Counted from the first letter of the stretch, positions 2,773 to 42,064 are shown. The stretch is DNA of 42,064 bases from Candidatus Parcubacteria bacterium (GCA_002869205.1 PKTJ01000043.1:1-42064); one strand, 5' to 3'. Program-made: numbers and translations. The notes: generated from the sequence alone by a model not told the origin.

Positions 2773-5700
2773 ATGGCCTTTTTTAGCATCATACAAAAAT
2801 ATGTCTGGCTCACCATAATCATTTTAGGATTAGGCCTGTCTGGTGTTTTTTTGCCGCGCTTGTATGACGGGTATGTAGATGTTGTTCAGGCTGGTGATGG
2901 CTCTAGTATAGATACCCCAATCACGATCTGTGATAGTGGGTGTGATTACACGACAATTAATGATGCTTTTTCTGCTGGTGGTGCGAGTAAATATTATGAA
3001 GTTCAAGCGGGGTTTACTTCATTTAGTGATTCTTTTATTACTGATGTCCCTACGAGTAGTTATTTCACATGTGCATCAAATGATATTGTTGTAATAAGTT
3101 CGAGTACTGCTCAAATTGAATGGGGTATGTCTGAAGGTGCAACTCTTACAGGGTGTTCTTTTAATAATGTAAACATAGGACAAAATAAACCTGAAGGAAT
3201 ATATCAACCAGCTACTGGCGTTACTATTAGTGATAATATATTTACCACCACAAGCCCTTCTTTTATATATGGATCTGTGAGTACAACCAATTGGACGGTG
3301 AGTGGTAATATAGGTTTGAATGGGTTTAACATTACACCAAAGTGTAATAACTGTACTATTTCTGGTAATACCATACATATTACTTCATCAACTGATACTT
3401 CCGGTATAAAGATTTCTGGTGATAGTATAAATATCTTGAGTAATACAATACAGGGTTATGTGTCAGACGGAGGCGCTTATGGTAGTGTAATTGAAAGTGA
3501 TAGTGGACTTAGTAATACACTCATTGCGACAAACACAATTAGCTTTCCTACTCCTGTTGTTACAACAAGCTATAATTTCAATGCTATACATATGTATAGT
3601 AGTAGCGGTATGGATTCTAGTGTGACAAGCACAATAATTCGGGGTAATCGTATCATCGTTCGTTATGATGATAGTCAAACATTGGGGAATAGTTCAGAGG
3701 CAGCTGTTAATGTAATAGATATTTCGGCTACCAGCACGGGTCAAATAGCAGTAGAAATCTCTCATAATACCATTGTATGTGATCCTCATTGTACCAATGC
3801 TATTTCTTTTGGAGGTTGGTCTAGTCCAGATTCTTCTGCCGCTGTTACTAGTACCTATAATATTTTTTATAGTGCTGAACTTTTTAACAGTGACGGTAAT
3901 ACTGATACTGCTGTGGAATTTAATTCTGGTATCAGTTCGCCAACAGTATATGAGGATTATAATGTTTTTTATAATTTTTCTACAAATTTAAATTATAGTA
4001 ATTCAAGTCAAACTATTGGATCAAACTCCCTTACCTCTGATCCTGGTCTTCGTCTTCTTGATTCTAATACTTTCAATGATTGGATGCTTGCACCATACTC
4101 TAATCTATTTGATGTGAATGGTACGGTGGATATAGGCGCAGATACTGGTAGTCGTGGAAGTACGTTTGTCATAGATGCTGACGGTACAGTGGATTATTCC
4201 ACAATACATGCTACCACTACGGCAGCACTTTCTTCTGCTACGAGTAGTGATACATGGAATATTTATGGCGGTGTGTATGATGGCTTTTCTCTATCTTCTA
4301 TAACAGGTTTTACATTAGCTGGTCAAGAAGACGGAGTTATTCTTAGTGCAGGTGCCTCGAGTAATCCTATTAGATTGTCATCTGTAGATAATTCTACTTT
4401 TTCCAATTTAACTGTGAGAAACGCGAGCTCTACATCAGAGTCATTTACTGTTACAATAAATCCATATTCACTTGATGGGACAGATTATGATGGAGATTGT
4501 GATCCTTGTATGGAGTTCGTGTTTGCTGATGAAGGCGCGTCTGAAAGTGATATGATTCTTTCAATTACAGAAAATAACCAAAGTGTTGCAGATGTTATTG
4601 ACGATACACCTCAGACATGGAATCTTGCACTTTTGAAAGTAGAGGAGGTAGATATGGGGGAGCCATTGACGTCTTATGTGACAGGATATTATGACGATAA
4701 TGAATTTTCTAACCAGGCCGCAGTGCAGACGTTTTGGGATGATATGTATGCTGGCGAGGATGTGACAACTACTATTATGCATTGGCATGAAGATCTCTTT
4801 GTTTATACCAATGGTGCTTATGTATATACCGCACCGACTGGGCCAACACTTTTAGAAGGGTTTAATTCTGGTACACCGGAAATTGCTCGTTCTTTATCAT
4901 ATTATAATGCGGGAATTTATTTATCCAATTCAGATACCAATACGTTTTCAAATGTTACCTCTACGGCGAGCACATACAACGTTCACTTTACTGGAACTTC
5001 AGCGGGTAATAATATAAATGACGCAGTGTTAGCAAATGCAATAAGCTATGATATTTTGGCAGACGGTTCAGGAGACAATAATATAAAAAATACGAGCTTT
5101 TCGACTGCATCAACTAGTATTACCTCTACCGGTGATGTGAATGTCTATTATAAAATGAGAGCACTTGTTACCACGACATCATCTGGTGTAGAAGGAATGG
5201 ATGTTACATTTGAAGACGCGGGTAGTAATGCTTCGTCAACGCTCAGTACAGACTCTGATGGATATACATCATACACAGATTATCTTCTTGCGTGGGTGAT
5301 GGATAGTACTACCACGACAGACAAAACAAATGGTACATATAATCCATACACGATTTCGGCAGCGGCTACTTCGACATATGCTGCCACTTCCACAGCAGCC
5401 ACGCTTGATAGTATAAATGAGACAATAACACTTATAACGGGTAGTGCACCAACGGCGCCAGCTTTATCTAGTGGAAGTATTGGCGCGACGACATCTACTA
5501 TAGAGTGGACTGATAATGCTGATGATGAGACAGGTTTTGTGTGGCTTATTTCGACTGATGATGAGACATATACTACTGCCACTACAACTTCTGCAAATGT
5601 TACATCTGCTTCGATCACTGGTCTCACACCTAATACCGTATACTATGCAAAAATAGCTGCCTTTAATACATATGGCACTTCCACATATTATAGTTGGGGA

Positions 5701-7239
5701 GGGGATGATGATACCACGACTAATCCAGCTATTCCATCTTCTCTTGCTACATCAGCTGATGGCACAGACAGTATTATTCTTACATGGGGGGCAAATTCAA
5801 ATCCAGCGACGACAGTATATGATTTGCGCTATGATGGAGACGACTATGCGACATCTATTACAACAACAATAGATAGGAGCTACACGATGACCGGACTGAG
5901 TGCTGGCACAACCTATACCTTCAAAGTGCGAGCACAATATCTGACGAGTTCGACATTGTATTCAAATTATTCAGATACAGCGAGTGCGACGACTGACTCA
6001 GCAGCTTCAGAAGAGGTGGTGAGTGGTGGTGGGGGAGGATCTGTCGCGCCGGCACCACCGAGTGCTCCAAGTACTGCGTCAGCCCCTACGGTGAGTGTTT
6101 CTGTAGAACCAAATACACCACAAATTGTGGCGATAGGTAATACATCTCACACGGTTACTGCAGCCGCTCCGGCAGCAGATGGTAGTGTTGTTATTACTAT
6201 TCAATCTGACCCAGTTACGATTACTCTCCTGCCAAAAGAAGAGCGTCTGATTGACACTAATACTGATGGAGAAAATGACTTGTTTGTAAGACTTGATAGC
6301 GCAAATGAAGATATCGTACAAGTTACGCTGTCTGCTATAGATGATCTTGAATTTAGTATTAATCGTGCTCTTTCTACTACAGAATCACAAGATGTGATAC
6401 TTCATTTCAATTCACCACATGCAGTCATGGTAGCTATTTCTAATACTGCAGATTTTGAAGGTGTTTCGTATCAGTCATACATGTCAGAAATCCCATGGAC
6501 ACTGACTGAAGGCAGTGGCGAGAAAACAGTATATGTGAAATTGAGAACCGCACAAGGTGGTACCAGAGACGTGAGTGACACTATTGTTCGTGTTGTTGCA
6601 GATGTTCCTTCAGATGTAGTCATTCCAGAAGGGGAATGTCCTTTGGATGTAGAAAAGGCATATAAGCACGAAAAACATTCTGGAGTTTATTATATTACAG
6701 ACACATGTACCAAACGTGCGTTTATGGATGAGAGTACATTCTTCTCTTACTTTGTTTCATGGGACGGTGTTTCTGTGGTAGCAGAAGAGAAATTGGCAAT
6801 GGTACCTCGTGACGTGCTTGAATTTATGCCAAAAGGATCTCTATACATACCTCTTGAAAGTAGTCTTGTTAAGACGGTAACTGATCCAAGTGTGTATTTA
6901 TTATTTAGTGGTCAAAAACACTTGATCGCATCGCCAACTGTGTTTAAAGCGCTTGGGTATGCATGGAATTGGATTGAAGATGTTGCATCATCTTTGCTTG
7001 ATAAGTTTTCATCAGGAGAAAATATTTCTGAGTCTGGTACGCATCCGAATTATACATTGATTACCTATCCAGATTCATCAGAAATATACCGTATTGAACC
7101 TGACCAAAATGATGCGACAAAGCAGGTCAAGAGGTGTATTAAAAATGAAGAGGTGTTTGAGAGTTATGGGTTTAAATGGGAGAGGGTTGTGGAAATAGAT
7201 GAGAGTGAGACGTACGCAGATGGGGCACCTTTGCAATAA
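2773..7239 (+). CDS. Giant exported surface protein, class A: beta-helix (pectin-lyase-like) head, FN3 repeats, G/P linker, triple C-terminal repeat
   Basis: 1488 aa. N-terminal hydrophobic segment; CDYTTINDA and repeated (V/I)xGNxI rungs typical of a right-handed beta-helix; FN3 motifs (ITGLTPNTVYYAKIAAFN, MTGLSAGTTYTFKVRA). The C-terminal ~400 aa is paralogous to 23358..27854. Confidence 0.85.
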   Translation: MAFFSIIQKYVWLTIIILGLGLSGVFLPRLYDGYVDVVQAGDGSSIDTPITICDSGCDYTTINDAFSAGGASKYYEVQAGFTSFSDSFITDVPTSSYFTCASNDIVVISSSTAQIEWGMSEGATLTGCSFNNVNIGQNKPEGIYQPATGVTISDNIFTTTSPSFIYGSVSTTNWTVSGNIGLNGFNITPKCNNCTISGNTIHITSSTDTSGIKISGDSINILSNTIQGYVSDGGAYGSVIESDSGLSNTLIATNTISFPTPVVTTSYNFNAIHMYSSSGMDSSVTSTIIRGNRIIVRYDDSQTLGNSSEAAVNVIDISATSTGQIAVEISHNTIVCDPHCTNAISFGGWSSPDSSAAVTSTYNIFYSAELFNSDGNTDTAVEFNSGISSPTVYEDYNVFYNFSTNLNYSNSSQTIGSNSLTSDPGLRLLDSNTFNDWMLAPYSNLFDVNGTVDIGADTGSRGSTFVIDADGTVDYSTIHATTTAALSSATSSDTWNIYGGVYDGFSLSSITGFTLAGQEDGVILSAGASSNPIRLSSVDNSTFSNLTVRNASSTSESFTVTINPYSLDGTDYDGDCDPCMEFVFADEGASESDMILSITENNQSVADVIDDTPQTWNLALLKVEEVDMGEPLTSYVTGYYDDNEFSNQAAVQTFWDDMYAGEDVTTTIMHWHEDLFVYTNGAYVYTAPTGPTLLEGFNSGTPEIARSLSYYNAGIYLSNSDTNTFSNVTSTASTYNVHFTGTSAGNNINDAVLANAISYDILADGSGDNNIKNTSFSTASTSITSTGDVNVYYKMRALVTTTSSGVEGMDVTFEDAGSNASSTLSTDSDGYTSYTDYLLAWVMDSTTTTDKTNGTYNPYTISAAATSTYAATSTAATLDSINETITLITGSAPTAPALSSGSIGATTSTIEWTDNADDETGFVWLISTDDETYTTATTTSANVTSASITGLTPNTVYYAKIAAFNTYGTSTYYSWGGDDDTTTNPAIPSSLATSADGTDSIILTWGANSNPATTVYDLRYDGDDYATSITTTIDRSYTMTGLSAGTTYTFKVRAQYLTSSTLYSNYSDTASATTDSAASEEVVSGGGGGSVAPAPPSAPSTASAPTVSVSVEPNTPQIVAIGNTSHTVTAAAPAADGSVVITIQSDPVTITLLPKEERLIDTNTDGENDLFVRLDSANEDIVQVTLSAIDDLEFSINRALSTTESQDVILHFNSPHAVMVAISNTADFEGVSYQSYMSEIPWTLTEGSGEKTVYVKLRTAQGGTRDVSDTIVRVVADVPSDVVIPEGECPLDVEKAYKHEKHSGVYYITDTCTKRAFMDESTFFSYFVSWDGVSVVAEEKLAMVPRDVLEFMPKGSLYIPLESSLVKTVTDPSVYLLFSGQKHLIASPTVFKALGYAWNWIEDVASSLLDKFSSGENISESGTHPNYTLITYPDSSEIYRIEPDQNDATKQVKRCIKNEEVFESYGFKWERVVEIDESETYADGAPLQ

Positions 7240-23357: not shown

Positions 23358-26300
23358 ATGTCTTTTTCTATAAAAGATAGAGTTTATCATATCACCAGAG
23401 AATACGTTTATTTAGGTATTGCTGTACTTTTTCTGGGTATTGCTGGTGTGATGGTGCCACAGCTCTATGATGGTTATGTAGATGATGTGATGGCCGAGAC
23501 CACGTTTAGTGCGGCAGCCACGATATCAGAAGAGGCACTCAGTCATCGAAACATTTTGAAATTACAGAAGATAAATGGTGTTTATTATACATCTTATTTG
23601 ACACCAGCTTTGGGTGGTGGTTTAGGGGATATTACCATAGCCACTTCTACTGATGGTGTGAATTGGGGTTTTCCGTATGATGCCGTTTCTGGGACATCTC
23701 CTAAAGATTATGGTTTTGGCTATTATGAACAAGGTGGTTATTTTTATGCAGTTTTTTCTGATTATAATTATGGTAATTATAACACCACAGAGATAGTATT
23801 CACTACGTCATCAGATGCTATCACGTGGTCTGCCACCTCGACTGTATTTGACCTGCCGATAAATGGATTTAATCCTGATATTTTTTCATCGATGGTTTCT
23901 TCAAGTAATTATTTGTCTTTTGCCTATTATGATGATGATGTCATAGCTTTTGTCGTGGCTACATCGACGGATGGTTCGAGTTGGTCTACATCTACCATTG
24001 CAAGTGATATTTTTGGTGCAGAAGGTTTTGCTGTAGATGGTAATGGTACAATGCATGCATTGTATACCGTTCCTTCTGATGAAAATTTTGATCAGAATAC
24101 ACAAGTACATTTGTATTATGCAAGTTCGACGGATGATGGTAACACATGGACGAGCAGTGTGATTGATAGAGTCGACTATCAAAGTTATGTCACCGAAATT
24201 ATTGGATCAATAGCCGTAGATAATAGTGGTAATCCGGGTATTGCATATTATACTTCGGATGAAATTAGTGATTTTGTCTGGACACAAGATGGTGATGAGT
24301 GGAGTTGGGCAGGAGATGGTACCGTGACTACTTCATTGAAGTATGCTAAATATGCAGATTCTGATTGGTCTTCGTCTACTATAGCAACAATTCCTTTATC
24401 GATTGTGAGTACGACGGATGGTTTGAGTATGAGACCGAGTTTGACATTCAATGAAGATAATGAGGCTATATTTGCTGGTGCTTGGACAAGTTTTTATCCA
24501 AATTTATTCGTCAATACTGATGCTGCAGACACCTCTCAATTTGATACGACTCAAATAGATAATAAATCGCTCGTAAATCTTCCCTCAAATAATGTTGGAT
24601 TAAGTTTATTTTATAATACGAGCACGGATGATGTTGTATTCGTGTATAGTGCCGATGATGGATCAGGGAGTGATATGGATCTGTTTTTTGTCACGAGCTC
24701 GGTACTTACTGTAGAAACAGTGCTAGACCCTCCTAGTAATCTCGCTGTTACTCCTTCTGATACGGACCAGATAAATGTGTCATGGGATGCCGTATCTGGT
24801 GCGACGAGCTATGTATTATACCGAGATACAAATAGTGGTTTTACAGACACAACTACAGTGACAACAACTGCTTCTACAAGTTATAGTGATACAGGACTGG
24901 TGTATGGCACAACGTATTATTATAAAGTAGCGACCGTCAATGGCGCGGGAACGGGGACACCGTCTGCATCAGTGAACACATCTACAGTTGCGTGGGATGG
25001 AAGTTTGAGTACGGTACTTAGTGTGGATACTAATTCATTTACACGATTAATATACGCGAATTCACAATACTATTATTTTTATACTAATTCTCCTGACAGT
25101 GATTATAACATTTATTTGACAACGTCGACAGATGGTACGGACGAGAGCTGGAGTGAGCCAAATGAAATAGTGAGTACGATCAAATCTATTACAGACCCTG
25201 TTAAGCCTATATACGATATACTTTACGATAGCACAGATGATTATTTTGGCTTGACATACTATGTATCTTCTACAGGTGTAATGGCTTTTACAACTTCAAG
25301 TGATGGTGTCACATGGGCAACCAATGTGCCAATATATACTGAGTTGGTTGCTGATAATGTATTTATGAATAATCTGAGTATTTCAGATGGTACGAGCTAT
25401 ATAGCTGTTGGATATGGGGTGAATGAAGTTGCATACTCGAGTGATACTGGTGCCACGTGGTCAACATCGAGTCTAGGCTTGTCTGGGGACAGCTCATCCT
25501 TGATAAATATAGAGATAGATAGTAGTGGATATTTACACGCTGCTTATATTGATGAGAGCACTCCGGCTTTTGTGTATACATCCTCTACAGACAATGGTGA
25601 TACATGGTCTTCAAGCACAATTTACACTGCTTCTAATTATGATTTTGGTCATGACAAATTTATGTTGGATGGAAATGAAAGACCTGCTTTATTATTCGGA
25701 GATAGGACGAGTGGTAGCTATGAGACAGCGACAGGTAACATGTATTTTAGCGTCTTAGAGGATGGTGCCTGGTCAGAGGGTTTGATTAGAGAGATCGATT
25801 TTCCCTATACGACAGATAGTGAATTGGCTTTTTCTGATTTGAATTTTTACGGAGCACGACCGTATATGGTTTATGTGGGTGAAAGTAGTTATCCTGACTT
25901 TGCTTATAGTACGAGTACCGCTGATCCATTTACGATGAATGTTTCAGAAAATTACGGCTCAAATGGTGAGGTGGTAGGTGAACAGGGGAAAATGTCTATG
26001 GCCTATGACAGTAGTAATACGACCGTGGCAGTAGCTTATGTGAATAGTAGTGGTGAGCTGAAATTTGTCACCAGCTCTATGGATCTCGTCACCTATACTC
26101 CTGGTACTCCAACTGCAGTTGCTACGAGTGACACTACTATGACGGTTACGTGGTCAGCAAATTCAAATCTGTCTGGCACAACGTATGAATTATACAATGT
26201 TACAGATTCAGAAGTGATAGACACGACTACAGAAGTATCTTATTCGGTTACTGGCCTTACAGCTGAAACAAGCTATCAGTTTAAGGTAAGAGCACAATAT

Positions 26301-27854
26301 GTATCAGATGATAGTTTGTATACAGATTATTCTGCCAACTCTACTGCAGTGTCTACAGATGCAGCCGATGAAGAAGAGGAAGAATCAACACCAGTAACGT
26401 CAGGCGGAGGTTCTTCGCCAGCACCATCACCTCCGCCAGCACCAAGCACAGCAGCTCCTGCGTCTGTGAGTGTAGTGGTTACGCCAAATGCACCACAGGC
26501 GGTCTCTGTGGGGAATGCTTCACATACGGTGACAGCATCAGCACCAGGTGCTGATGGAGCGGTGACTATTCTTATTCAGTCAGATCCTGTAACCATTATT
26601 CTTAAGCCTGGTGAAGAAGAATTAATTGATACGGATAGTAATTTTGAAGATGATTTGTTCGTGAGACTCGATTCCGTGGATGGAGACAATGTAAGTCTTA
26701 CAATTGCTGCGATAGATGATTTGGAATTTAGTATTAACAAAGCTCTTTCTACGACAGATTCGCGAAATGTAAAACTGTACTTCAATTCACCAGAAGCTAC
26801 TCAAATGGCAATCTCAGATTCAAGTGATTTTTCTGGAGTTTCATTTCAATCATACAAAGACGAGGCTTCATGGATATTGACTAAGGGTAATGGTACGAAG
26901 ACTATCTATGTGAGATTTCGAACAGCTGCCGGTGGTACACGAACGGTTACTGACACTATTGTATTAGAAGGCCAGGATACAGATCAGGTAGAACAGGGAA
27001 ATGAGTGTGGTTTAACTTCACAAAAAGCATATAAATACGCAAGTTCACCATCTGTGTATTATGTCACTGATGACTGTACGAAGCGCGCTTTTTCACGATC
27101 AGATATTTTCTTCACCTATTTTGATTCATGGAATGATGTACACCTAACAACCAAATCTAAATTAGATGCTATTTCTAATGACACTCTTGGTTTTATGCCT
27201 CTTGGGCCAAATTATGATCCAAAGTATGGGGCATTGGTAAAAGTGGTATCATCTCCTCGAGTATACTTATTACTTGGTACTGAAAAATATTGGATTACAT
27301 CACCAGATGTGTTTACGTCGCTTAATTATGCTTGGGGATGGATAGAAGATGTAGATGAAAGGCTCCTTGAAAAATATACAACTGGATCAGAAATCACCTA
27401 TACAGACCATCATCCAAACTATACACTCGTGAAATACGAGAATGATTCAAAGATCTACAGACTTGAGCCTCAGGGAGATAGACAGGTTAAACGTTGGATT
27501 GCAGGGGAAGATGCATTTAATTCTCTCAATTTCCGTTGGGATCGAATCGTTACTATTTCTGAGGAAGAGGTGTATGATACAGGAGAAGAATTAAGCAGTG
27601 CCTCAAGTCAAGTTCAATCAAGTGGCTCGTACATGTTTAGCTCGTTCTTATCTTTTGGGGATAGTGGTGAAGAGGTTAAGCAGCTTCAGCTTAAACTGCA
27701 AGAATTAAATTATTTATCACAAGACATTGAGGTAAATAGTCATTTTGGGCCATCCACAAAAGAGGCTGTTATGAAGTTGCAGCAAGAACATAATCTTACT
27801 CCAGCACAAGGGTATGTAGGTCCTGGAACAAGAGCTGTCTTGAATAGTCTTTAA
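23358..27854 (+). CDS. Giant exported surface protein, class A: two Asp-box (sialidase-like) propeller regions, FN3, triple C-terminal repeat, peptidoglycan-binding domain
   Basis: 1498 aa. Asp-boxes STDGVNW, STDGSSW, STDDGNTW, SSDGVTW, SSDTGATW and STDNGDTW; FN3 (DTGLVYGTTYYYKV, VTGLTAETSYQFKVRA); C-terminal LSFGDSGEEVKQLQ..FGPSTKEAV..Q..GYVGPGTRAVLN (PG_binding_1-like). Confidence 0.87.
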   Translation: MSFSIKDRVYHITREYVYLGIAVLFLGIAGVMVPQLYDGYVDDVMAETTFSAAATISEEALSHRNILKLQKINGVYYTSYLTPALGGGLGDITIATSTDGVNWGFPYDAVSGTSPKDYGFGYYEQGGYFYAVFSDYNYGNYNTTEIVFTTSSDAITWSATSTVFDLPINGFNPDIFSSMVSSSNYLSFAYYDDDVIAFVVATSTDGSSWSTSTIASDIFGAEGFAVDGNGTMHALYTVPSDENFDQNTQVHLYYASSTDDGNTWTSSVIDRVDYQSYVTEIIGSIAVDNSGNPGIAYYTSDEISDFVWTQDGDEWSWAGDGTVTTSLKYAKYADSDWSSSTIATIPLSIVSTTDGLSMRPSLTFNEDNEAIFAGAWTSFYPNLFVNTDAADTSQFDTTQIDNKSLVNLPSNNVGLSLFYNTSTDDVVFVYSADDGSGSDMDLFFVTSSVLTVETVLDPPSNLAVTPSDTDQINVSWDAVSGATSYVLYRDTNSGFTDTTTVTTTASTSYSDTGLVYGTTYYYKVATVNGAGTGTPSASVNTSTVAWDGSLSTVLSVDTNSFTRLIYANSQYYYFYTNSPDSDYNIYLTTSTDGTDESWSEPNEIVSTIKSITDPVKPIYDILYDSTDDYFGLTYYVSSTGVMAFTTSSDGVTWATNVPIYTELVADNVFMNNLSISDGTSYIAVGYGVNEVAYSSDTGATWSTSSLGLSGDSSSLINIEIDSSGYLHAAYIDESTPAFVYTSSTDNGDTWSSSTIYTASNYDFGHDKFMLDGNERPALLFGDRTSGSYETATGNMYFSVLEDGAWSEGLIREIDFPYTTDSELAFSDLNFYGARPYMVYVGESSYPDFAYSTSTADPFTMNVSENYGSNGEVVGEQGKMSMAYDSSNTTVAVAYVNSSGELKFVTSSMDLVTYTPGTPTAVATSDTTMTVTWSANSNLSGTTYELYNVTDSEVIDTTTEVSYSVTGLTAETSYQFKVRAQYVSDDSLYTDYSANSTAVSTDAADEEEEESTPVTSGGGSSPAPSPPPAPSTAAPASVSVVVTPNAPQAVSVGNASHTVTASAPGADGAVTILIQSDPVTIILKPGEEELIDTDSNFEDDLFVRLDSVDGDNVSLTIAAIDDLEFSINKALSTTDSRNVKLYFNSPEATQMAISDSSDFSGVSFQSYKDEASWILTKGNGTKTIYVRFRTAAGGTRTVTDTIVLEGQDTDQVEQGNECGLTSQKAYKYASSPSVYYVTDDCTKRAFSRSDIFFTYFDSWNDVHLTTKSKLDAISNDTLGFMPLGPNYDPKYGALVKVVSSPRVYLLLGTEKYWITSPDVFTSLNYAWGWIEDVDERLLEKYTTGSEITYTDHHPNYTLVKYENDSKIYRLEPQGDRQVKRWIAGEDAFNSLNFRWDRIVTISEEEVYDTGEELSSASSQVQSSGSYMFSSFLSFGDSGEEVKQLQLKLQELNYLSQDIEVNSHFGPSTKEAVMKLQQEHNLTPAQGYVGPGTRAVLNSL

Positions 27855-32474: not shown

Positions 32475-32570
32475 ATTTTTTAGCTTATTTATTAATATAA
32501 TAACTTGTGTAAGTATATACCAAAAGGCAGGATTGAATCAATCCTCAAAATAGGCTATACTATCTCTACT

Positions 32571-34154
32571 ATGACAGGATCAAAAGTACCAAAAAAACAA
32601 GTAAAAAGTAAGCGTGAAGGACCTACGCTTCTTATTATTTTAGACGGATTTGGGCTTGCTGACCCGAAAGAAAAGGGGAATGCAATAACGCCTCAGACCG
32701 CGCCACATATTTTTGGGTATATGAAAAAGTATCCAAATTCAACACTCAAAACATATGGTGAGCATGTTGGATTGTTCAAAGGTCAGCAAGGTAATTCAGA
32801 AGCAGGGCACATGAATATTGGTGCTGGTAGAATTGTAAAACAAGACTTAGTTGAAATTTCAGACGCAATCCATAATGGGACGTTCTATAAAAAAGAAGCT
32901 TTCAAACAAGCTATTCATCATGTGAAGAAGTACAAAACTGCCGTTCATATTATGGGACTTTTGACTGATGGCAATAGTGCTCATGCGTATCCTGAACACT
33001 TGTATGCGACGCTTGAACTGTGCCGTCGTGAAAAAATAGACAAAGTTTATTTGCATCTATTTACTGATGGACGAGATTCACCTCCACATGCTGCGGCGAC
33101 GTATTTATACGAATTACGTGGGCATATGATGGCACATGAAAAGATAGCAACAATTATGGGGCGCTTTTATGGAATGGATAGAAATAAATATTGGGATCGT
33201 ACCAAACAGGCATACGAAGCTATGATACTTGGCAAAGGTTGTGCCGCCCCAAGTGCTGAAGAGGCAATATCTCAGAGTTACAATCGCAATGAAACAGATG
33301 AGTTTATTTGTCCAACGGTAATTGTCGAGGGAAATAAACCTGTGGCAACGATCAAAGATAATGATGCTATATTTTTTATTAACGCACGTAGTGATAGGGC
33401 GCGACAGATTACCAAGGTTTTTGTACAAAAGGATTTCAATAAGATGAATCCAGGAAGTTTCAAGCGTGCGAAGTATCCAAAAAACACACGATTTGTTGCT
33501 ATGACAGATTTTGGCCCAGATCTTGAAGGCATTTTTACGGTATTTCCATCTCCTGACTTGGTTGGCACTTTGCCAATGGCGCTTCACGAGAAGGAACAAC
33601 TATATATTGCAGAGTCAGAGAAGTATGCACATGTGACATACTTTATAAATGGTGGTTATGCAGATCATGTAGGAGGGGAAGTCCGTATGAAGATTGATTC
33701 AAAAGAAACAAAAAGCTATGACAAAAAACCTGAGATGTCAGCCGCAGGAGTTGCTGATGAAATTATTCGTTATTTAGAAAAAGATTACTTGGATTTTTGT
33801 TGTGTAAATTTTGCCAATCCAGACATGGTTGGTCATACAGGAAATCTTCAAGCAGGAAAGAAAGCAGTGGCAGAAGTGGATTCTCAGGTGAAGAGAATTG
33901 TTGACATAATTGTGAAAAAAAATGGACAAGCGCTTATTATCGCAGATCATGGAAATGCAGAAGTGATGATAAATAAAAAAACAGGAGAGATTATGACTGA
34001 ACATACCACTAATCCGGTGCCGTGTATATTGATCAAGAATAATATCGAAGGCATAAAAATTAAAAATGGTATTTTGGCGGATGTCGCACCAACTATCTTG
34101 AAGATGATGGGTGTGGAGAAGCCAGAAGAGATGACCGGAAAATCTTTAATTTAG
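32571..34154 (+). CDS. gpmI: 2,3-bisphosphoglycerate-independent phosphoglycerate mutase, copy 1
   Basis: IILDGFG, GNSEAGH (catalytic Ser), DGRD, GRFYGMDR, ESEKYAHVTYF, NPDMVGHTG, ADHGN and EHTTNPVP. ATG 32571 is preferred over TTG 32505. Confidence 0.96.
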   Translation: MTGSKVPKKQVKSKREGPTLLIILDGFGLADPKEKGNAITPQTAPHIFGYMKKYPNSTLKTYGEHVGLFKGQQGNSEAGHMNIGAGRIVKQDLVEISDAIHNGTFYKKEAFKQAIHHVKKYKTAVHIMGLLTDGNSAHAYPEHLYATLELCRREKIDKVYLHLFTDGRDSPPHAAATYLYELRGHMMAHEKIATIMGRFYGMDRNKYWDRTKQAYEAMILGKGCAAPSAEEAISQSYNRNETDEFICPTVIVEGNKPVATIKDNDAIFFINARSDRARQITKVFVQKDFNKMNPGSFKRAKYPKNTRFVAMTDFGPDLEGIFTVFPSPDLVGTLPMALHEKEQLYIAESEKYAHVTYFINGGYADHVGGEVRMKIDSKETKSYDKKPEMSAAGVADEIIRYLEKDYLDFCCVNFANPDMVGHTGNLQAGKKAVAEVDSQVKRIVDIIVKKNGQALIIADHGNAEVMINKKTGEIMTEHTTNPVPCILIKNNIEGIKIKNGILADVAPTILKMMGVEKPEEMTGKSLI

Positions 34155-34253: not shown

Positions 34254-35831
34254 ATGAATAGACCAAAACCAGTAGTGCTCGCTATCCTCGATGGATGGGG
34301 TATTGCACCTGACGGCAAAGGAAATGCTATCACACGAGCAAAGACTCCTACGTTTGATAAGTTTGTGCGTGAGTATCCTGCCATGACCCTTTTTGCTTCG
34401 GGAAATGAAGTCGGTTTGTCGTTTGGTGAAATGGGTAATTCTGAGGTAGGGCATCTCAATATTGGTGCAGGTCGTGTGTATTACCAAACACTCCCGCGTA
34501 TTAATAAGACCATTGATGATGGAACTTTTTTTGATAACAAAGCGTTTTTGTCTGCGACAGATCGTGTCAAAAAAAATAAATCAAAACTACATTTGATTGG
34601 ACTGGTAAGTCCGGGAAATGTGCATGCAAGTCAGGATCATTTATATGCACTTTTGGAATTGGCAAAAAAACAAAAAGTAAAAGAAGTCTATGTACATGTC
34701 ATACTCGATGGACGTGACACGATATATAATTCTGGCATTGATTTTGTAAAACAACTACAGAAAAAAATGAAGAAGTTGAAGGTGGGGGAGATCGCGAGTA
34801 TCTCTGGTCGATATTTTGCTATGGATCGAGATAATAGATGGGACAGGTGTGAGAAAGCATATCTTGCGATGGCAGAAGGAAAATCGTCTGAATATTTCAA
34901 AGATCCGGTAGACGCACTAGAGAGTTCGTATAAAAATGAAGTATATGATGAGGAGTTTGTACCTGTCGTAATAGGAAAAGAAGGTAAGCCTACTACAATC
35001 GTAGAAAAGGGCGATGCAGCAATATTTTTTAATTTTCGTCCAGATCGTGCGCGTCAGTTGACCAAAGCATTTGTGCTGCCTGGGTTTAGTAAATTTGATC
35101 GAGAGTATATAAAAGACTTGTTTTTTGTCACTATGACTGAGTATGAAAAAGAAACTCCAGTGACTGTGGCATACAATCCGGTAGTCGTACATAATTCTCT
35201 CGCAGAGGTTATAAGCAAGGCAGGGCTCAAACAATTTCATATTGCTGAGACAGAAAAATATGCACACATTACTTTTTTCTTAAATGGTACTGTTGAAGAT
35301 CCTTTTGATAAGGAAGATCGTCTCATTATTCCTTCGCCAAAAGTGTCTTCATATGACAAGGCTCCAAAAATGTCAGCCTCAAAGATTACCAAAGAAGTTG
35401 TGAAGGCTATTGAATCAGACAAGTATGATGCTATTATCTTAAACTATGCAAACGCTGACATGGTAGGGCATACAGGAGATACCGATGCCACAATAAAAGG
35501 TTGTGAAGAAGTAGACAAAGGTTTAGGAAAAATTGCTGATTATATTTTGGCACAAGATGGTGTCTTACTTGTCACTGCTGATCATGGTAATGGCGAAGAA
35601 GTGTCCAATTTACAAACAGGTGAAATGGACAAAGAACATAGTACCAATCCGGTGCCTTTTCTCATTGTTGGGAATGAATATAAAGGTCAGGCAGGATCTG
35701 CTGGCGATCCCCCAGATGGAGATATGAGTTTGATGCACCCTGTGGGAGTTTTGGCTGATGTGGCACCAACCATGCTAAAGATCTTGGATGTAGACCAGCC
35801 AAAAGAAATGACAGGTAGGGCATTGATATAA
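34254..35831 (+). CDS. gpmI: 2,3-bisphosphoglycerate-independent phosphoglycerate mutase, copy 2
   Basis: LAILDGWG, MGNSEVGH, DGRD, GRYFAMDRDNRW, NFRPDRARQ, ETEKYAH, DMVGHTG and TADHGN. Confidence 0.97.
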   Translation: MNRPKPVVLAILDGWGIAPDGKGNAITRAKTPTFDKFVREYPAMTLFASGNEVGLSFGEMGNSEVGHLNIGAGRVYYQTLPRINKTIDDGTFFDNKAFLSATDRVKKNKSKLHLIGLVSPGNVHASQDHLYALLELAKKQKVKEVYVHVILDGRDTIYNSGIDFVKQLQKKMKKLKVGEIASISGRYFAMDRDNRWDRCEKAYLAMAEGKSSEYFKDPVDALESSYKNEVYDEEFVPVVIGKEGKPTTIVEKGDAAIFFNFRPDRARQLTKAFVLPGFSKFDREYIKDLFFVTMTEYEKETPVTVAYNPVVVHNSLAEVISKAGLKQFHIAETEKYAHITFFLNGTVEDPFDKEDRLIIPSPKVSSYDKAPKMSASKITKEVVKAIESDKYDAIILNYANADMVGHTGDTDATIKGCEEVDKGLGKIADYILAQDGVLLVTADHGNGEEVSNLQTGEMDKEHSTNPVPFLIVGNEYKGQAGSAGDPPDGDMSLMHPVGVLADVAPTMLKILDVDQPKEMTGRALI

Positions 35832-37520: not shown

Positions 37521-40205
37521 ATGAAAGAATTACCAAAAGCTTACGAACCAAAGCAATACGAAGATGATATTTATAAACGCTGGGAAGAGAGCGGGTTTTT
37601 TAATCCTGATACTTGTATTGAAAAAGGTGTGTGTGAGAAAGACGCAGAGACATTTAGTATCGTACTTCCTCCACCAAATGTTACTGGTACGCTTCACATC
37701 GGACATGCAGTAATGCTTGCAATTGAAGATGTAATGGTTAGATATCATAGAATGAAAGGGGATCGAACCTTGTGGATTCCAGGGACTGACCACGCTGCCA
37801 TTGCTACTCAAGAGAAAGTGGAGCGTATTTTGTGGGACGAAGAAAAAAAGACACGTCATGATCTCGGACGTGAAGAATTTCTGGATAAAGTAAATACATT
37901 TGCAAGTGATAGTCATGATCGTATCGTAAATCAAGCAAAAAAAATGGGGACGTCAATGGATTGGTCTCGTGAATATTATTCACTTGATGAGGACCGTAAT
38001 CTTGCAGTGAGAAAAGCTTTCAAAAAAATGTACGACGAAGGGCTGATCTATAGAGGTGATCGTATTGTAAATTGGGATCCAAAAATGCAATCAAATGTTT
38101 CTGATATTGAAGTAGTGAGAAAAGAAGAAAAAGCCTCCTTTTATTATTTTCAATATGGTCCATTTGTAATTGGAACATCTCGACCTGAAACTAAATTTGG
38201 TGATAAGTACGTGGTAATGCATCCAGATGACAAGAGATATAAAGATTATAAGCATGGTGATACATTTGAGTGCGAATGGATTAATGGTAAAATCGTTGCA
38301 ACTATTATAAAAGATGAAGCAGTGGATCCAGAGTTTGGAACAGGTGTCATGACAATCACACCTTGGCATGATGCAACTGACTTTTTTATGGCGGAACGTC
38401 ATAATTTAGACAAAGAACAAGTAATTGATTTAGATGGGAATCTAATGAGCATTGCTGGAGAGTTTTCTGGTATGCATATTCTAGATGCTAGACCAAAGAT
38501 TGTTGAGAAGCTTAAGGAAAAAGGTTTGCTCGTCCGTGTTGATGAAGATTATTTGCACGCCAAAGCTACTAATAGCCGTGGTGGAGGACTTATAGAGCCA
38601 CAAATTATGAAACAATGGTGGGTGGATGTTAAGAAAAAATTTACTGTAGAGGATTCAAAGATCGAAGGAATTGACAGCGGAAAAGATTATAGTCTAAAAG
38701 AAATTTTACAGCATGTTGTAAGATCAAAACAGATAGATATTTTACCAGAACGATTTGAAAAGAATTATTTTAATTGGGTTGATAATTTGCTTGACTGGTG
38801 TTTGTCACGCCAACTTTGGTTTGGTCATCAGGTTCCTGCTTGGTATAGAGGTGATGAGGTGTACGTAGGTGTTGATGCACCAGAAGGCGAAGGGTGGACA
38901 CAAGATCCAGACACACTCGATACTTGGTTTAGTGCAGGGATGTTTAGCTTTACCCCACTTGGTGGTATTGATGAGGAGACTGATGATCTTAGAGACTACC
39001 ATCCCACAAGTGTTTTAGAAACTGGATATGACATTCTTACTTTTTGGGTAGTCCGCATGATTTTGATGACTACCTACTTGCGTAATGAGATTCCATTTAA
39101 GACAGTATACTTGCATGGATTAGTTCGTGACGAGATCGGGCGTAAGATGAGTAAATCATTGGATAATATTATAGATCCATTAGACGTTTCAGAAAAGTTT
39201 GGGACTGATGCAGTTCGACTATCTCTTATTATTGGTGCTTCACCTGGTAATGATTCAAAGTTAAGCGTAGAGAAGATTGGTGGATTTAGAAATTTTGCCA
39301 ATAAGCTTTGGAATATTAGTAGGTTCATGCTTATTAATATTGATGATCCCAAAGTAGACGCTCCACATCCTCAACCAAATACAGTGGCAGATAGTAATAT
39401 TTTGGTTAAGTTGACAAGTATTATTCACGAGGTGACAAAAGATGTTGAAGAATATCGTTTTTCAATGGCTGGTGAAAAACTTAGAGATTTTACATGGAAT
39501 GAGCTTGCTGATTGGTATCTTGAAATTGCGAAAATTGAAGAAAATAAATCAGATATATTAAATTTTATTTTAAATACCATTTTGAAACTCTGGCATCCAT
39601 TTATGCCATTTGTTACAGAAGCAATATGGCAAGAGATGTATGGTGAGGACGAATTGCTAATGGTAGAAAAATGGCCAGAATTGAAATCACATACAAGCAC
39701 TGGTTATGTGTTGAATTGGAGCAAAGAAGAAATTACAGTCACAGAACAATTTTTAATATTAAAAAATATAGTTACCAAAACTCGCTCTCTTAGGGGAGAT
39801 TACAAAATCGATCCAGTTAAAAAGTTAAATATAGTCATTTCTGCCGGAGATAAAAAAGATATGCTTTTGGAAAATACCGAGGTAATAAAACGATTAGCAC
39901 GATTGGAAGATTTACAAATTGAAGAAAAAATAGAAAAACCAGAACAATCAGTTGGGTTTGTTGAAGCAGGTCTGGACGTGTATGTGAATTTAGAAGGTGT
40001 AGTAGATTTTGAAAAAGAAAAAACACGTCTCACAAAAGAAATTAAACAACTTGAAGGATACATCGGTGGTTTAGACAAAAAACTGAGTAATGAAAAGTTT
40101 GTAAGTAGCGCCCCAGAAGACGTAGTAGAAAAAGAAAAAGAAAAATTAAAAGAGGGGAATGAGAAACTGGAAAAATTAAAGACCCAACTCGAATCATTGC
40201 AATAA
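37521..40205 (+). CDS. valS: Valine--tRNA ligase
   Basis: PPPNVTGTLHIGH, GTDHAAIATQ, DWCLSRQLWFGH, DTLDTWFS, KMSKS and a C-terminal coiled coil (LSNEKFV..AP). Confidence 0.99.
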   Translation: MKELPKAYEPKQYEDDIYKRWEESGFFNPDTCIEKGVCEKDAETFSIVLPPPNVTGTLHIGHAVMLAIEDVMVRYHRMKGDRTLWIPGTDHAAIATQEKVERILWDEEKKTRHDLGREEFLDKVNTFASDSHDRIVNQAKKMGTSMDWSREYYSLDEDRNLAVRKAFKKMYDEGLIYRGDRIVNWDPKMQSNVSDIEVVRKEEKASFYYFQYGPFVIGTSRPETKFGDKYVVMHPDDKRYKDYKHGDTFECEWINGKIVATIIKDEAVDPEFGTGVMTITPWHDATDFFMAERHNLDKEQVIDLDGNLMSIAGEFSGMHILDARPKIVEKLKEKGLLVRVDEDYLHAKATNSRGGGLIEPQIMKQWWVDVKKKFTVEDSKIEGIDSGKDYSLKEILQHVVRSKQIDILPERFEKNYFNWVDNLLDWCLSRQLWFGHQVPAWYRGDEVYVGVDAPEGEGWTQDPDTLDTWFSAGMFSFTPLGGIDEETDDLRDYHPTSVLETGYDILTFWVVRMILMTTYLRNEIPFKTVYLHGLVRDEIGRKMSKSLDNIIDPLDVSEKFGTDAVRLSLIIGASPGNDSKLSVEKIGGFRNFANKLWNISRFMLINIDDPKVDAPHPQPNTVADSNILVKLTSIIHEVTKDVEEYRFSMAGEKLRDFTWNELADWYLEIAKIEENKSDILNFILNTILKLWHPFMPFVTEAIWQEMYGEDELLMVEKWPELKSHTSTGYVLNWSKEEITVTEQFLILKNIVTKTRSLRGDYKIDPVKKLNIVISAGDKKDMLLENTEVIKRLARLEDLQIEEKIEKPEQSVGFVEAGLDVYVNLEGVVDFEKEKTRLTKEIKQLEGYIGGLDKKLSNEKFVSSAPEDVVEKEKEKLKEGNEKLEKLKTQLESLQ

Positions 40206-40232
40206 AAAAATCCCTCGTATGAGGGATTTTTT
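40205..40232. terminator. Bidirectional terminator
   Basis: aaaaaatccctc-gtat-gagggatttttt. Confidence 0.8.
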
Positions 40233-40245
40233 AATTTATATTATG

Positions 40246-41310
40246 TTATGCTGCATGAGCAAATCCAAAATTTTCAGCAAGTTGTTCAAATGCCATATCT
40301 TTTCGTAATTCTTGGCGCTGTGTTGCAAGATCTATAGACGTGTCATATTTATCAAAACGTTTTTTGAGTTGCTTTTGTACAGCATCTGGAACATGTGAGA
40401 TATCAGCTGGTATGTTATCTCCATCTTCTGTCTTGGATCCTTCAAAAAACATTTGTTTTCTTCCTTTTGCCCATCCTATCTGTACCTTATCCCAGCCTTT
40501 TATCTTTTTTTCAACCTTCTCTTTTGTTTCATCATTTACTTTCTTCCCATCTCTGTAAGTCGTGAACGCTTGAAGTATATAGGGGTTTTGTTCAAGAAGA
40601 AAAGAATCTCCTTCAAGCATGTATGTCTCTGGTGCCATACTAGAGCCTCCGATATCAGCATAGGCAATTAAGTGTGCTTGCCATGGAGCTTCTGTATCTA
40701 ATTGTTGGTATATGGTGCCAGTGCTTAGGTCAAAGTTTTTTGGTTTTGTTCCCTCAATGGCGTGTTTAATAATATTTCTATACAGTTCTTTTGTTTCTTC
40801 ATCAGCAATGTGTTCTTGGAGATGTGCTTCTATTTCCACAAGCGCTTGTTCTATGCTGATATCTTCGTTTGTTCCGGATTTGTAGTTTCGAATATTTTCA
40901 TCATCTCCATGACCATATGGTACAATTTTTGTTTCTTGTCCTATATCATGCATGGCTGCGGCATATTTTAGAATTGCTTTCATTTCTTCTGAAATATGTA
41001 CGCTTGGATCATCAGAGTTATTTATTTCTTCACACATTTCTTCCACTCGTATTACAATTTTTTCACTATGGTTTCTGTTGTGAAAGGGGAGTTGCTCGTT
41101 TATATTTTGTGTGAATGGCTCAAATGCATTTTGTTCGTATCCAACAAATTGTTCATCTTCCACAGGGTTTGGCATACCATCTTGGTAGGATCCATATCTT
41201 TCTCCCACAGACTGAAGAACATGTATAGTTTTCTCTTCCATAATTTTTGTGAGTTCGGTTTTTTCTCCGACTTCTCGGGGGTCTACCGTTGTCTGTCTAT
41301 CATCTCTCAT
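40246..41310 (-). CDS. HD-superfamily metal-dependent phosphohydrolase
   Basis: PFHNRNH...AAMHDIG...TNEDIS...AYADIG, the H..HD..D arrangement of HD/PDEase domains. Confidence 0.75.
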   Translation of the reverse strand: MRDDRQTTVDPREVGEKTELTKIMEEKTIHVLQSVGERYGSYQDGMPNPVEDEQFVGYEQNAFEPFTQNINEQLPFHNRNHSEKIVIRVEEMCEEINNSDDPSVHISEEMKAILKYAAAMHDIGQETKIVPYGHGDDENIRNYKSGTNEDISIEQALVEIEAHLQEHIADEETKELYRNIIKHAIEGTKPKNFDLSTGTIYQQLDTEAPWQAHLIAYADIGGSSMAPETYMLEGDSFLLEQNPYILQAFTTYRDGKKVNDETKEKVEKKIKGWDKVQIGWAKGRKQMFFEGSKTEDGDNIPADISHVPDAVQKQLKKRFDKYDTSIDLATQRQELRKDMAFEQLAENFGFAHAA

Positions 41311-41448
41311 AAAGCTTTATTTAAGTATATTTGTGAAAGGTACTGTACCTTTTTTTCTATATTTATGTCAATAAAAAAATATATCTTGCGATATATGTAT
41401 ATTTGGTGGGAATGCAACCAGGGGTGAGCCTAGCTACAAACCCCTGGC

Positions 41449-41583
41449 CTAGGCAGCCCGCTGTCGGTCAGCCGCGTCTTTCGCGGCTTCGAATTCCTTC
41501 GAGGGGGCCTTCTTTGGCCTCCGGGGGGACTTCACTTCCTTCGCGGGAGCCGCCTTGACCTCGACCTTCGTGGTCTCGGTCAT
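41449..41583 (-). CDS. 44-aa Lys/Ala-rich small protein in a high-GC island (not in the ORF track)
   Basis: MTETTKVEVKAAPAKEVKSPRRPKKAPSKEFEAAKDAADRQRAA*. AGGAGGT ends 4 nt before the ATG, and 34 of 43 codons end in G/C. Confidence 0.6.
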   Translation of the reverse strand: MTETTKVEVKAAPAKEVKSPRRPKKAPSKEFEAAKDAADRQRAA

Positions 41584-41623
41584 GGTGACCTCCTCTTCCC
41601 TTACGGGATTTAGATGCACCGTT

Positions 41624-41653
41624 AATATATACTACATTACTATGCTTTGTCAA
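41624..41653 (-). promoter_or_regulatory. Sigma70-type promoter for the high-GC transcript
   Basis: TTGACA (41653-41648), 18-nt spacer, TATATT (41629-41624). The GC-rich segment begins just downstream at about 41620. Confidence 0.6.
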
Positions 41654-41761
41654 TACTAAAACTCACAAAAAACTTGAACAATTAGTCAAATATTGTTAAT
41701 ATAGCACTAGAGTTATTCACAAAAAGTGGATATTTTCTGTGTATTTTTTAAATAAATTTGT

Positions 41762-42064
41762 ATGAAGGTCTCTACTGATCCACAAAAAATCGAAGAAGCA
41801 TTGTCTCGATCTATTGATACGATCTACCCAAAGAAAGAAGACTTTAAAAAATTACTTGAGTCAGGACAGCAATTGACGATGTATGTTGGTATTGACCCAA
41901 CAGCGACGTATGTTCACCTTGGTCATGCCACTAATTATATTATTCTCAAGAGATTTCATGAGCTTGGACACAAAATCATTGTGCTTGTGGGAGACTTCAC
42001 TGCAAAGATTGGGGACCCAAGTGACAAGAATGCCGCACGAAAGCGTCTGACTGACGAAGATGTA
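41762..42064 (+). CDS. tyrS: Tyrosine--tRNA ligase, N-terminal part (runs off the window)
   Basis: Hand translation: MKVSTDPQKIEEALSR...YVGIDPTATYVHLGH...LVGDFTAKIGDPSDKNAARKRL. Confidence 0.96.
   Translation, partial: MKVSTDPQKIEEALSRSIDTIYPKKEDFKKLLESGQQLTMYVGIDPTATYVHLGHATNYIILKRFHELGHKIIVLVGDFTAKIGDPSDKNAARKRLTDEDV

Follow-up and report, generated by a model that had tools for sequence, protein, structure and literature searches.

What is a 203-nucleotide (nt) block of GC-rich DNA doing in an AT-rich intergenic region of a small bacterial genome: is it a gene, a structured RNA or debris? The question is raised by PKTJ01000043.1:1-42064 from Candidatus Parcubacteria bacterium (GCA_002869205.1; contig C47 of the draft), a stretch of 42,064 nt referred to here as the window, in which a segment between the valS gene and a tyrosyl/tryptophanyl-tRNA synthetase (Tyr/Trp-RS) gene, tyrS, departs sharply from its surroundings. 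An initial annotation, prepared from the sequence alone, described this segment as a mini transcription unit on the minus strand with a native promoter, foreign-style translation signals and a short open reading frame (ORF). The island is proposed here, with a probability of roughly 0.55, to be a horizontally acquired, stand-alone small-protein gene from a GC-rich organism that is transcribed from a native promoter and translated by means of a Shine-Dalgarno (SD) site. This proposal is built on the observed composition of the island, its signals, its coding-like frame, its absence from the same site in relatives, and the existence of a genome-wide class of segments with a shared architecture.

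Composition and signals of the GC-rich island

In agreement with the initial count, exactly 129 of the 210 positions in 41411-41620 are G or C (61.4%), compared to 38.9% for the whole window, and both flanks are AT-rich (33.2% GC in 41200-41410 and 28.1% in 41621-41830). A two-state composition hidden Markov model (HMM) delimits a GC-rich segment of 203 nt, positions 41405-41607, with a GC content of 63.5% in a genome of 39.2%. The codon usage of the ORF deviates in the same manner, with G or C at 35 of its 44 third codon positions (GC3), and the boundaries of the segment are sharp. The composition edge is located only 16 nt beyond the end of the −10 box of a promoter-like site, P1 (Table 1), which scores best among the 7 such sites in 40100-42064. 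The predicted promoter, the GNRA hairpin and the terminal CCCACCA are all present as initially described. The stem-loop that contains this hairpin has a folding energy of −13.1 kcal/mol (z −2.4 to −2.8).

The translation signals are equally well defined. A perfect SD sequence is separated from the ATG at 41583 by CACC, a gap of 4 nt, or of 5 nt if measured from the GGAGG core. The resulting AGGAGGT-CACC-ATG arrangement leads into the only frame of the island that resembles coding sequence: under a codon model derived from 19 island genes, ORF P0001 scores +17.9 bits and each of the remaining five frames at most 2.1 bits. In this model, in-frame windows score 20.7 ± 9.2 bits and off-frame windows −23 ± 19 bits, and 0.4% of the latter attain the score of P0001. 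Both halves of the ORF are positive (10.7 and 7.1 bits), and the 5′ leader and the 3′ tail have no positive frame. The GC counts at the first, second and third codon positions are 28/44, 23/44 and 35/44, the last of which, like the C-terminal RAA, had been correctly reported.

The SD sequence sets this ORF apart from the native genes. An SD is missing from all 21 native starts inspected in the window (for example those at 2773, 7338, 14514, 23358 and 37521), which makes the AGGAGGT start the sole SD-led one among 22 gene starts inspected and bears out the earlier remark that it was the only strong SD found before a start. The same habit is seen across the draft, which is metagenome-assembled (1,063,116 bp in 67 contigs, estimated completeness 97%). 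Among 765 scorable native ORFs of at least 150 amino acids (aa), an SD-like motif of at least 4 nt is found at the first start of 35 (8% at random positions), and a core of at least 5 nt is found at 11 (1.9% at random positions). Many native starts instead have a TATAAT-like box a few bases 5′ of the start codon, a placement that suggests leaderless or very-short-leader mRNAs. The 16S rRNA gene of this genome (C9:20146-21643) nevertheless ends in GGATCACCTCCTTTCT, which carries a canonical anti-SD (CCTCC), and the organism's own ribosomes are therefore able to use AGGAGGT.

Downstream of the stop codon, GC-rich stems without a U-run are followed by an AT-rich, terminator-like stem-loop that does have a U-run. 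This hairpin is weak (−5.1 kcal/mol, z −2.8), and a consensus terminator scan missed it because the scan requires 3 G-C pairs. With this hairpin and T7 run and a second promoter-like site, P2, downstream, and P1 upstream, the unit is flanked on both sides by native-looking signals. It looks stand-alone, and the initial picture of a native promoter joined to foreign-style translation signals is retained: P1 is AT-rich and of native type, and the payload is foreign in composition and SD-led.

Table 1. Features of the island and its surroundings (window coordinates; a dot indicates that no strand is assigned)
Feature	Position	Strand	Remarks
Promoter-like site P1, TTGACA (41653-41648)-N18-TATATT (41629-41624)	41624..41653	-	11/12 consensus positions
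Predicted 5′ untranslated region (UTR)	41584..41620	-	Stem-loop including GNRA hairpin TCCC-GTAA-GGGA (41608-41597); SD partly paired
GC-rich, compositionally foreign segment, 63.5% GC	41405..41607	.	Composition HMM; 1 of 108 in the genome
SD sequence AGGAGGT	41588..41594	-	Complementary to 16S 3′ end CCTCC
ORF P0001, 44 codons + TAG (41451-41449)	41449..41583	-	ATG at 41583; ends RQRAA
Two crossing stems at and 3′ of the stop codon	41418..41454	-	6 bp + 7-8 bp
CCCACCA, end of GC-rich segment	41404..41410	-	Sequence
Terminator-like hairpin ATATATC-GCAA-GATATAT (41396-41379) + T7 (41378-41372)	41372..41396	-	Native-type, AT-rich
Promoter-like site P2, TTGACA-N18-TACAGT	41342..41371	-	Ahead of next gene (354-aa ORF)
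354-aa orphan ORF	40246..41310	-	37.5% GC, native composition; weak HD-domain signal (E 0.023, below cut-off)

The valS-tyrS site in relatives

The gap between valS and tyrS (40206-41761, 1.55 kb) is occupied by the 354-aa ORF together with the island, and both run opposite to the two synthetase genes. In two relatives, G003 (contig C9) and G004 (C6), valS adjoins the Tyr/Trp-RS gene directly. In a relative of the same genus, G001 (C51), the two genes are separated by a different, AT-rich insert of 1.28 kb, which reads like a histidine-kinase-type ATPase as judged by eye. The island is thus absent from the syntenic site in all three, and the valS-tyrS junction is a variable hotspot. A search of 40 relatives with the island DNA returned chance-level short matches, the best of which (E 7.5e-4) covers 34 nt of the AT-rich promoter part. 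The island DNA is single-copy within its own genome and has no match among plasmids and phages. The neighbouring 354-aa ORF was not found in 25 relatives.

The remainder of the window encodes housekeeping functions, including glycolysis enzymes, RuvC, YebC, valyl-tRNA synthetase (ValRS) and Tyr/Trp-RS, as well as three giant surface proteins with fn3 and FG-GAP repeats. This gene content, the genome size and the 0.7-1.4-Mb genomes of the relatives suggest a reduced bacterium like those of the candidate phyla radiation (CPR). Two genes for cofactor-independent phosphoglycerate mutase (iPGM) adjoin in tandem at 32505-34154 and 34254-35831. ValRS of the window is 56% identical to that of G001 (C51:4535-6862) and 75% identical to that of G003 (C9:8458-11112), which belongs to another genus, and for the neighbouring Tyr/Trp-RS the identity to the G001 protein is 93%; these sequence identities suggest that valS was replaced in one lineage.

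A genome-wide class of GC-rich segments

The initial annotation had proposed a scan of the genome for further GC-rich, SD-bearing islands, and many were found. Sliding windows reveal dozens of stretches of 55-71% GC on most contigs, and the two-state HMM resolves 108 GC-rich segments of 49-3553 nt (61,059 nt in total). Seven of these overlap rRNA or tRNA genes; the remaining 101 account for 57,149 nt, or 5.4% of the genome, with a median length of 461 nt. Examples include C44:4993-6209, C46:3739-5981, C10:22022-25574, C5:10660-11020 and C22:10805-10998. Two short GC-rich patches in the window, 5978-6097 (63%) and 26398-26566 (60%), lie within giant surface-protein genes (2773-7239 and 23358-27854) and look like local compositional patches in native ORFs.

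The segments share an architecture, usually that of a unit with one gene placed between a native TTGACA promoter and a native T-run terminator. Inspection of the printed boundaries of 47 oriented islands shows sharp composition edges with AT-rich promoters upstream, often accompanied by a hairpin, and, on the downstream side, GC-rich hairpins 3′ of the stop codon followed by an AT-rich hairpin with a T-run. Among the 56 segments with a coding-like frame, one of which is a tRNA cluster, 36 have an SD sequence (core of at least 5 nt that precedes an in-frame start by 4-17 nt, with the start located in the first half of the frame; a few of the matches are internal), compared to 9 of 56 in the antisense control. 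A TTGAC[AT]-N16-19-TAnnnT promoter is present in the sense orientation within 150 nt upstream of 21 of the 56, compared to 3 in the antisense orientation and 2.0% of random AT-rich windows. A run of at least six T residues follows within 100 nt downstream of 42 of the 56 (20% of random windows). In the 21 promoter-bearing cases, the −10 box and the composition edge are −2 to 86 nt apart, and the 16 nt of the window island is the fourth shortest spacing.

A foreign origin is clear for a longer member of the class. A Pfam scan of 20 longer GC-rich ORFs placed 7 above the curated cut-off (H+-pyrophosphatase [H+-PPase], M29 peptidase, DUF4407, ECF sigma factor, cold-shock domain [CSD], PRPP-synthetase-like and PgpA) and left 12 without a family. 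H+-PPase is encoded twice in the genome. The copy at C46:3786-5867 is GC-rich, a block of 60-67% GC between flanks of 27-44%, and is approximately 50% identical to the native copy at C18:16039-18012 and to the relatives' copies. The C18 gene is read as the counterpart of the relatives' single copies because its identity to the GC-rich query is, like theirs, in the 48-52% range. Among 185,579 species genomes, the best matches to the GC-rich copy show 65-77% identity, and the contigs that carry them, for example that of a Planctomycetota metagenome-assembled genome, are 58-68% GC throughout. Judged by these sequence comparisons, the GC-rich H+-PPase is a clear xenolog and is decisive for foreign origin. 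One matching record is labelled 'Ca. Paceibacteria' and is itself uniformly GC-rich.

The same mosaic is seen in relatives, with 15 GC-rich segments in the 200 kb sampled from a 385-kb G003 contig (3.4%), 4 in the 103 kb sampled of G001 (1.5%) and 2 in the 60 kb sampled of G004 (0.9%). One G003 island begins ...GGAGGTCAG-ATGACC..., which resembles the ...GGAGGTCACC-ATGACC... of the window. Horizontal gene transfer into Patescibacteria has been reported to reach up to 13% of genome length in the available part of one study (PMC12455944).

A flank-versus-flank BLAST of all segments recovered only overlaps between neighbouring islands and short terminator-like repeats, and no att-like or recombination-site family. 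Three islands on contig C4 of G003 (L059:1957-2834, L059:16560-16961 and L060:591-1647) carry different genes and have in common a 3′ flank before the terminator, ...CCCCACC...CAATCATTTTTAC...TAGAAAT.ATTG..., and two islands on C11 of the present genome (G000) have a similar 'ATCATTTTTA...AAATGAT' element. From its sequence, this flank element may be a repeated intergenic or recombination element. Reverse transcriptase (PF00078) was not found in this 97% complete genome, and island uptake via an RNA copy is therefore without support.

The predicted peptide

The predicted product of P0001 is a hydrophilic peptide of 4.8 kDa with an isoelectric point of 10.0 and a grand average of hydropathy (GRAVY) of −1.18. 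It contains 10 Ala, 8 Lys, 4 Arg and 4 Pro residues, and no Leu, Ile or Trp. A single-sequence AlphaFold model shows coil for residues 1-28 and a helix for residues 29-43, with a mean predicted local distance difference test (pLDDT) score of 73.7. The peptide is thus basic and, in this model, predicted to be mostly disordered. A type I toxin, which is a small, hydrophobic, membrane-spanning peptide, was considered and ruled out based on the GRAVY value, the 12 Lys/Arg residues and the lack of Leu, Ile and Trp.

Several observations weigh against the proposal of a small-protein gene. An open frame of 44-codon size can be expected by chance in DNA of 62% GC, and the island contains two more open frames, of 51 and 61 aa. 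The 7 promoter-like sites in 40100-42064 are no excess over shuffled sequence (5.2 ± 2.6). The ORF body alone folds better than each of 200 shuffles (z −4.87), which is atypical of coding sequence. No homologue of the peptide was detected among proteins of 24-77 aa or of 78-2000 aa in a set of 5.8 billion clusters, among 1.84 billion representatives searched with phmmer (E ≤ 0.001), or in Pfam (E ≤ 5) and PADLOC. Genome contigs and viral contigs, which were searched with a 56-aa open frame that begins at an upstream GTG, likewise gave no match. Because homologues were not found, the peptide offers no conservation, donor or ratio of nonsynonymous to synonymous substitution (dN/dS). A low-complexity peptide of 44 aa is hard to detect, and the missing homologues also fit a non-functional ORF. 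Finally, no RNA run among the public runs listed contains the stretch, and no support for expression was found there.

The ESM Atlas gave no usable match to the peptide, and the peptide is absent from 239 other genomes of the order. Two metagenome matches were rejected as chance hits seeded by the search words; one lies within a 1160-aa helicase-like frame and the other on a contig of 59% GC. A homologue in a donor lineage was found solely for other islands, such as that of the H+-PPase, and not for the window ORF.

These results could also be explained if the island were a decaying remnant of a larger imported GC-rich fragment that has been trimmed by deletion bias, so recent that its ORF, SD sequence and stems are intact and yet without function, and perhaps still transcribed. 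Its size, 16th smallest among the 101 non-rRNA/tRNA segments, the failure of every search for peptide homologues, its location in a variable hotspot, and the fact that many small islands hold doubtful ORFs only are all consistent with such a fate. What a remnant does not readily account for is the completeness of the unit: a promoter, a well-spaced SD sequence, an ATG, two coding-like halves, a stop codon, a non-coding tail and a native terminator would rarely all survive random deletion. A remnant is consequently considered unlikely, and a small-protein gene remains the preferred reading.

RNA folding and the proposed pseudoknot

The strong folding of the unit raises the possibility of a structured small RNA that may be non-coding or dual-function and in which the hairpins rather than the peptide do the work. 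On the minus strand, the 228-nt unit has a fold z of −4.9, with none of 200 shuffles as good, and the value for the ORF part is more extreme than that of any of the 32 control windows taken from other island genes (mean −0.6, standard deviation 1.2, minimum −3.3). The partial pairing of the SD sequence within the 5′ stem-loop is also in keeping with a structured RNA. However, the plus strand of the unit folds as strongly (z −4.5), which shows that the excess is not strand-specific and stems from DNA palindromes. In addition, 5 of 14 other small islands have z values of −3.7 or below, and strong palindromes therefore characterize the class and not just the window island. Values of −4.1 to −6.7 were obtained for the small islands C5:10660-11020, C19:10084-10365, C9:19371-19650 and C12:10671-11005.

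The initial annotation had also described an H-type pseudoknot that includes the stop codon. Both stems are present: GCCTAG (41454-41449) can pair with CTAGGC (41433-41428), which places the TAG stop inside the first arm, and CCAGGGG(T) (41447-41440) can pair with (A)CCCCTGG (41425-41418). The pseudoknot itself is less secure. An H-type crossing of 6 + 7 bp arises in 1.4% of dinucleotide shuffles of the 76-nt 3′ region (71 of 5000) and in 6.8% of shuffles of the entire 228 nt (68 of 1000), and thus exceeds chance weakly. A rival nested hairpin (41443-41408) has an energy of −21.9 kcal/mol, approximately equal to that of the two crossing stems, which singly amount to −12.6 and −8.7 kcal/mol. 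The third loop of the putative pseudoknot would have 2-3 nt, a length that is sterically tight in an H-type fold. As a nested fold, the 3′ zone alone is ordinary and not better than shuffles (z −1.3 to −1.8).

The initial annotation had held that a match to a known RNA family would count against its reading. In searches of both strands of the window with Rfam 15, none reached the gathering score; for 41300-41760, Alfamo_CPB (16.1 bits, required 70) and sR60 (11.8 bits, required 50) appeared at E < 10 and are at chance level. A T-box leader for the adjacent tyrS was ruled out at the sensitivity of Rfam on both strands, and a plausible tyrS promoter, read by eye between the island and tyrS, also counts against it. 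The lack of a family, the lack of homologues in which covariation could be seen, and the codon-type periodicity of the frame argue against an RNA that acts through its structure. This explanation, for which the possible pseudoknot and the excess folding can be cited, is judged quite unlikely.

Integrity of the assembly

An assembly chimera or contamination, in which the assembler would have merged DNA of a GC-rich organism into the contig, is conceivable in a metagenome-assembled draft, and the one public run that contains the stretch (X1, a bioreactor metagenome and possibly the source sample itself) has a low depth of about 5x. The other two runs of the same study yielded no matching contig. 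Contigs built independently from X1 cover 40900-41317 (depth 6), 41506-41654 (4.6) and 41625-41877 (5.5). The second of these unitigs bridges the edge between the island and its promoter at a depth similar to that of the flanks (5.5-6), and thereby supports the continuity of the 5′ edge against a chimeric assembly, an outcome that the initial annotation had listed as refuting its reading; 41318-41505, which includes the 3′ junction of the island, is left uncovered by the X1 contigs. Because of this bridging unitig, the approximately 100 segments that are flanked on either side by native sequence within their contigs and are aligned with promoters and terminators, and the same mosaic in other assemblies of relatives, including the 385-kb contig, a chimera is very improbable; the estimated contamination of the genome is 0.07%. 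A second X1 contig (record 4) matches the promoter spacer at 41625-41731 with 10 differences and then diverges towards tyrS; by its sequence, it probably represents a related strain with a different arrangement.

Comparison with known systems

The initial suggestions of an mRNA tuned to the ribosomes of a high-GC host or of a dual-function RNA with traits of transfer-messenger RNA (tmRNA) drew on the likeness of the SD sequence and codon usage to those of a GC-rich organism and on the ...CCCACCA end of the segment, and are hardly credible given that the organism's own 16S rRNA has an anti-SD, that 36 of 56 island genes carry SD sequences, ordinary enzymes included, that ARAGORN finds no tRNA or tmRNA gene in the window and Rfam is negative, that the real tmRNA is encoded on a different contig (C27:928-1333), and that the predicted folds contain no acceptor-stem or T-arm pairing. 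The likeness to tmRNA (SsrA) is superficial and consists of a short ORF in a structured RNA, a possible pseudoknot and a 3′ ...CCA; the window unit lacks a tRNA-like domain and a resume-codon architecture, and its ORF is SD-led and begins with ATG. The ARAGORN output also shows that the tag peptide of the tmRNA on C27 is unusual in length and sequence and that a tRNA-Ile with the anticodon TAT is present at C14:18608-18681.

As a horizontally acquired gene, the island is an orphan case of a known phenomenon, that of compositionally atypical acquired genes. It resembles the atypical genes and islets of Patescibacteria presented in the available part of PMC12455944 in its foreign composition, its sharp boundaries, its absence from the relatives' site, its location in a variable hotspot and the occurrence of xenologs throughout the genome. 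The islands given in that part of the report measure 2.7-45 kb, whereas the window island measures 203 nt and has a single 44-codon ORF; it also differs in that it has no known donor or homologue and fits exactly between a native promoter and terminator. With bacterial small-protein genes (<50 aa) it shares a stand-alone promoter, canonical SD spacing, a short ORF and a terminator-like end. In contrast to these genes, the window ORF belongs to no family, shows no conservation that could be found and is known from its sequence alone. Many small membrane proteins and type I toxins are unlike the window peptide, which is hydrophilic and basic. Integron cassettes are likewise single-ORF units with an imperfect inverted repeat at the 3′ end and can be present in many units per genome. 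Unlike cassettes, the segments are scattered over most contigs rather than arrayed, each has its own promoter, and BLAST shows no flank family shared among them; an integrase was not searched for.

Proposed mechanism and implications

For the window island, we infer transcription, translation, a role of the peptide, and the direction and source of the transfer from the features described above. In the proposed sequence of events, GC-rich donor DNA would have been retained as a mini-gene in the variable valS-tyrS spot. The native, sigma-70-type P1 would start an RNA of ~245 nt at roughly 41617, which would begin with a short, hairpin-forming 5′ UTR that bears the strong SD site and would encode a basic, largely disordered Lys/Ala/Pro-rich peptide of 44 codons with a C-terminal helix. 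The GC-rich stem-loops 3′ of the stop codon were probably imported along with the gene and may serve as a 3′ stabiliser of the RNA or as a terminator, and the native AT-rich hairpin and U-run would close the unit ahead of the next promoter. A strongly folding GC-rich mRNA of this kind would need SD/anti-SD pairing for its translation, whereas native genes here start without an SD on AT-rich, unstructured leaders. As to the role of the peptide, a small basic peptide that binds nucleic acid or the ribosome is our guess.

A broader and more tentative reading, which at present has to be regarded as doubtful, is that translation in this reduced, CPR-like bacterium has two tiers, in which native genes are SD-less, with AT-rich leaders that are short or missing, and approximately 100 imported GC-rich genes, each set between a promoter and a terminator of native type, are SD-dependent, with the window unit possibly being dual-function. 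In such an arrangement, the body of the unit, through its strong folding and the partial masking of its own SD sequence, could regulate translation of the small basic peptide. If true, a two-tier arrangement would explain why a perfect anti-SD has been kept in an otherwise SD-less genome.

The genome-wide pattern of promoter, SD-bearing GC-rich payload and terminator is more interesting than the orphan mini-gene, which by itself is of modest interest. It shows a 1-Mb genome that owes about 5% of its sequence to foreign GC-rich DNA, split into about 100 pieces with sharp boundaries. For annotation, the pattern serves as a warning that a GC-rich islet in a genome of this kind is as a rule imported coding DNA and not a novel RNA. 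If it proves to be lineage-wide (relatives have it in 0.9-3.4% of their sampled sequence), the pattern would provide a testable picture of how ultra-small bacteria take up and express foreign genes, and would account for the survival of the anti-SD in SD-poor genomes.

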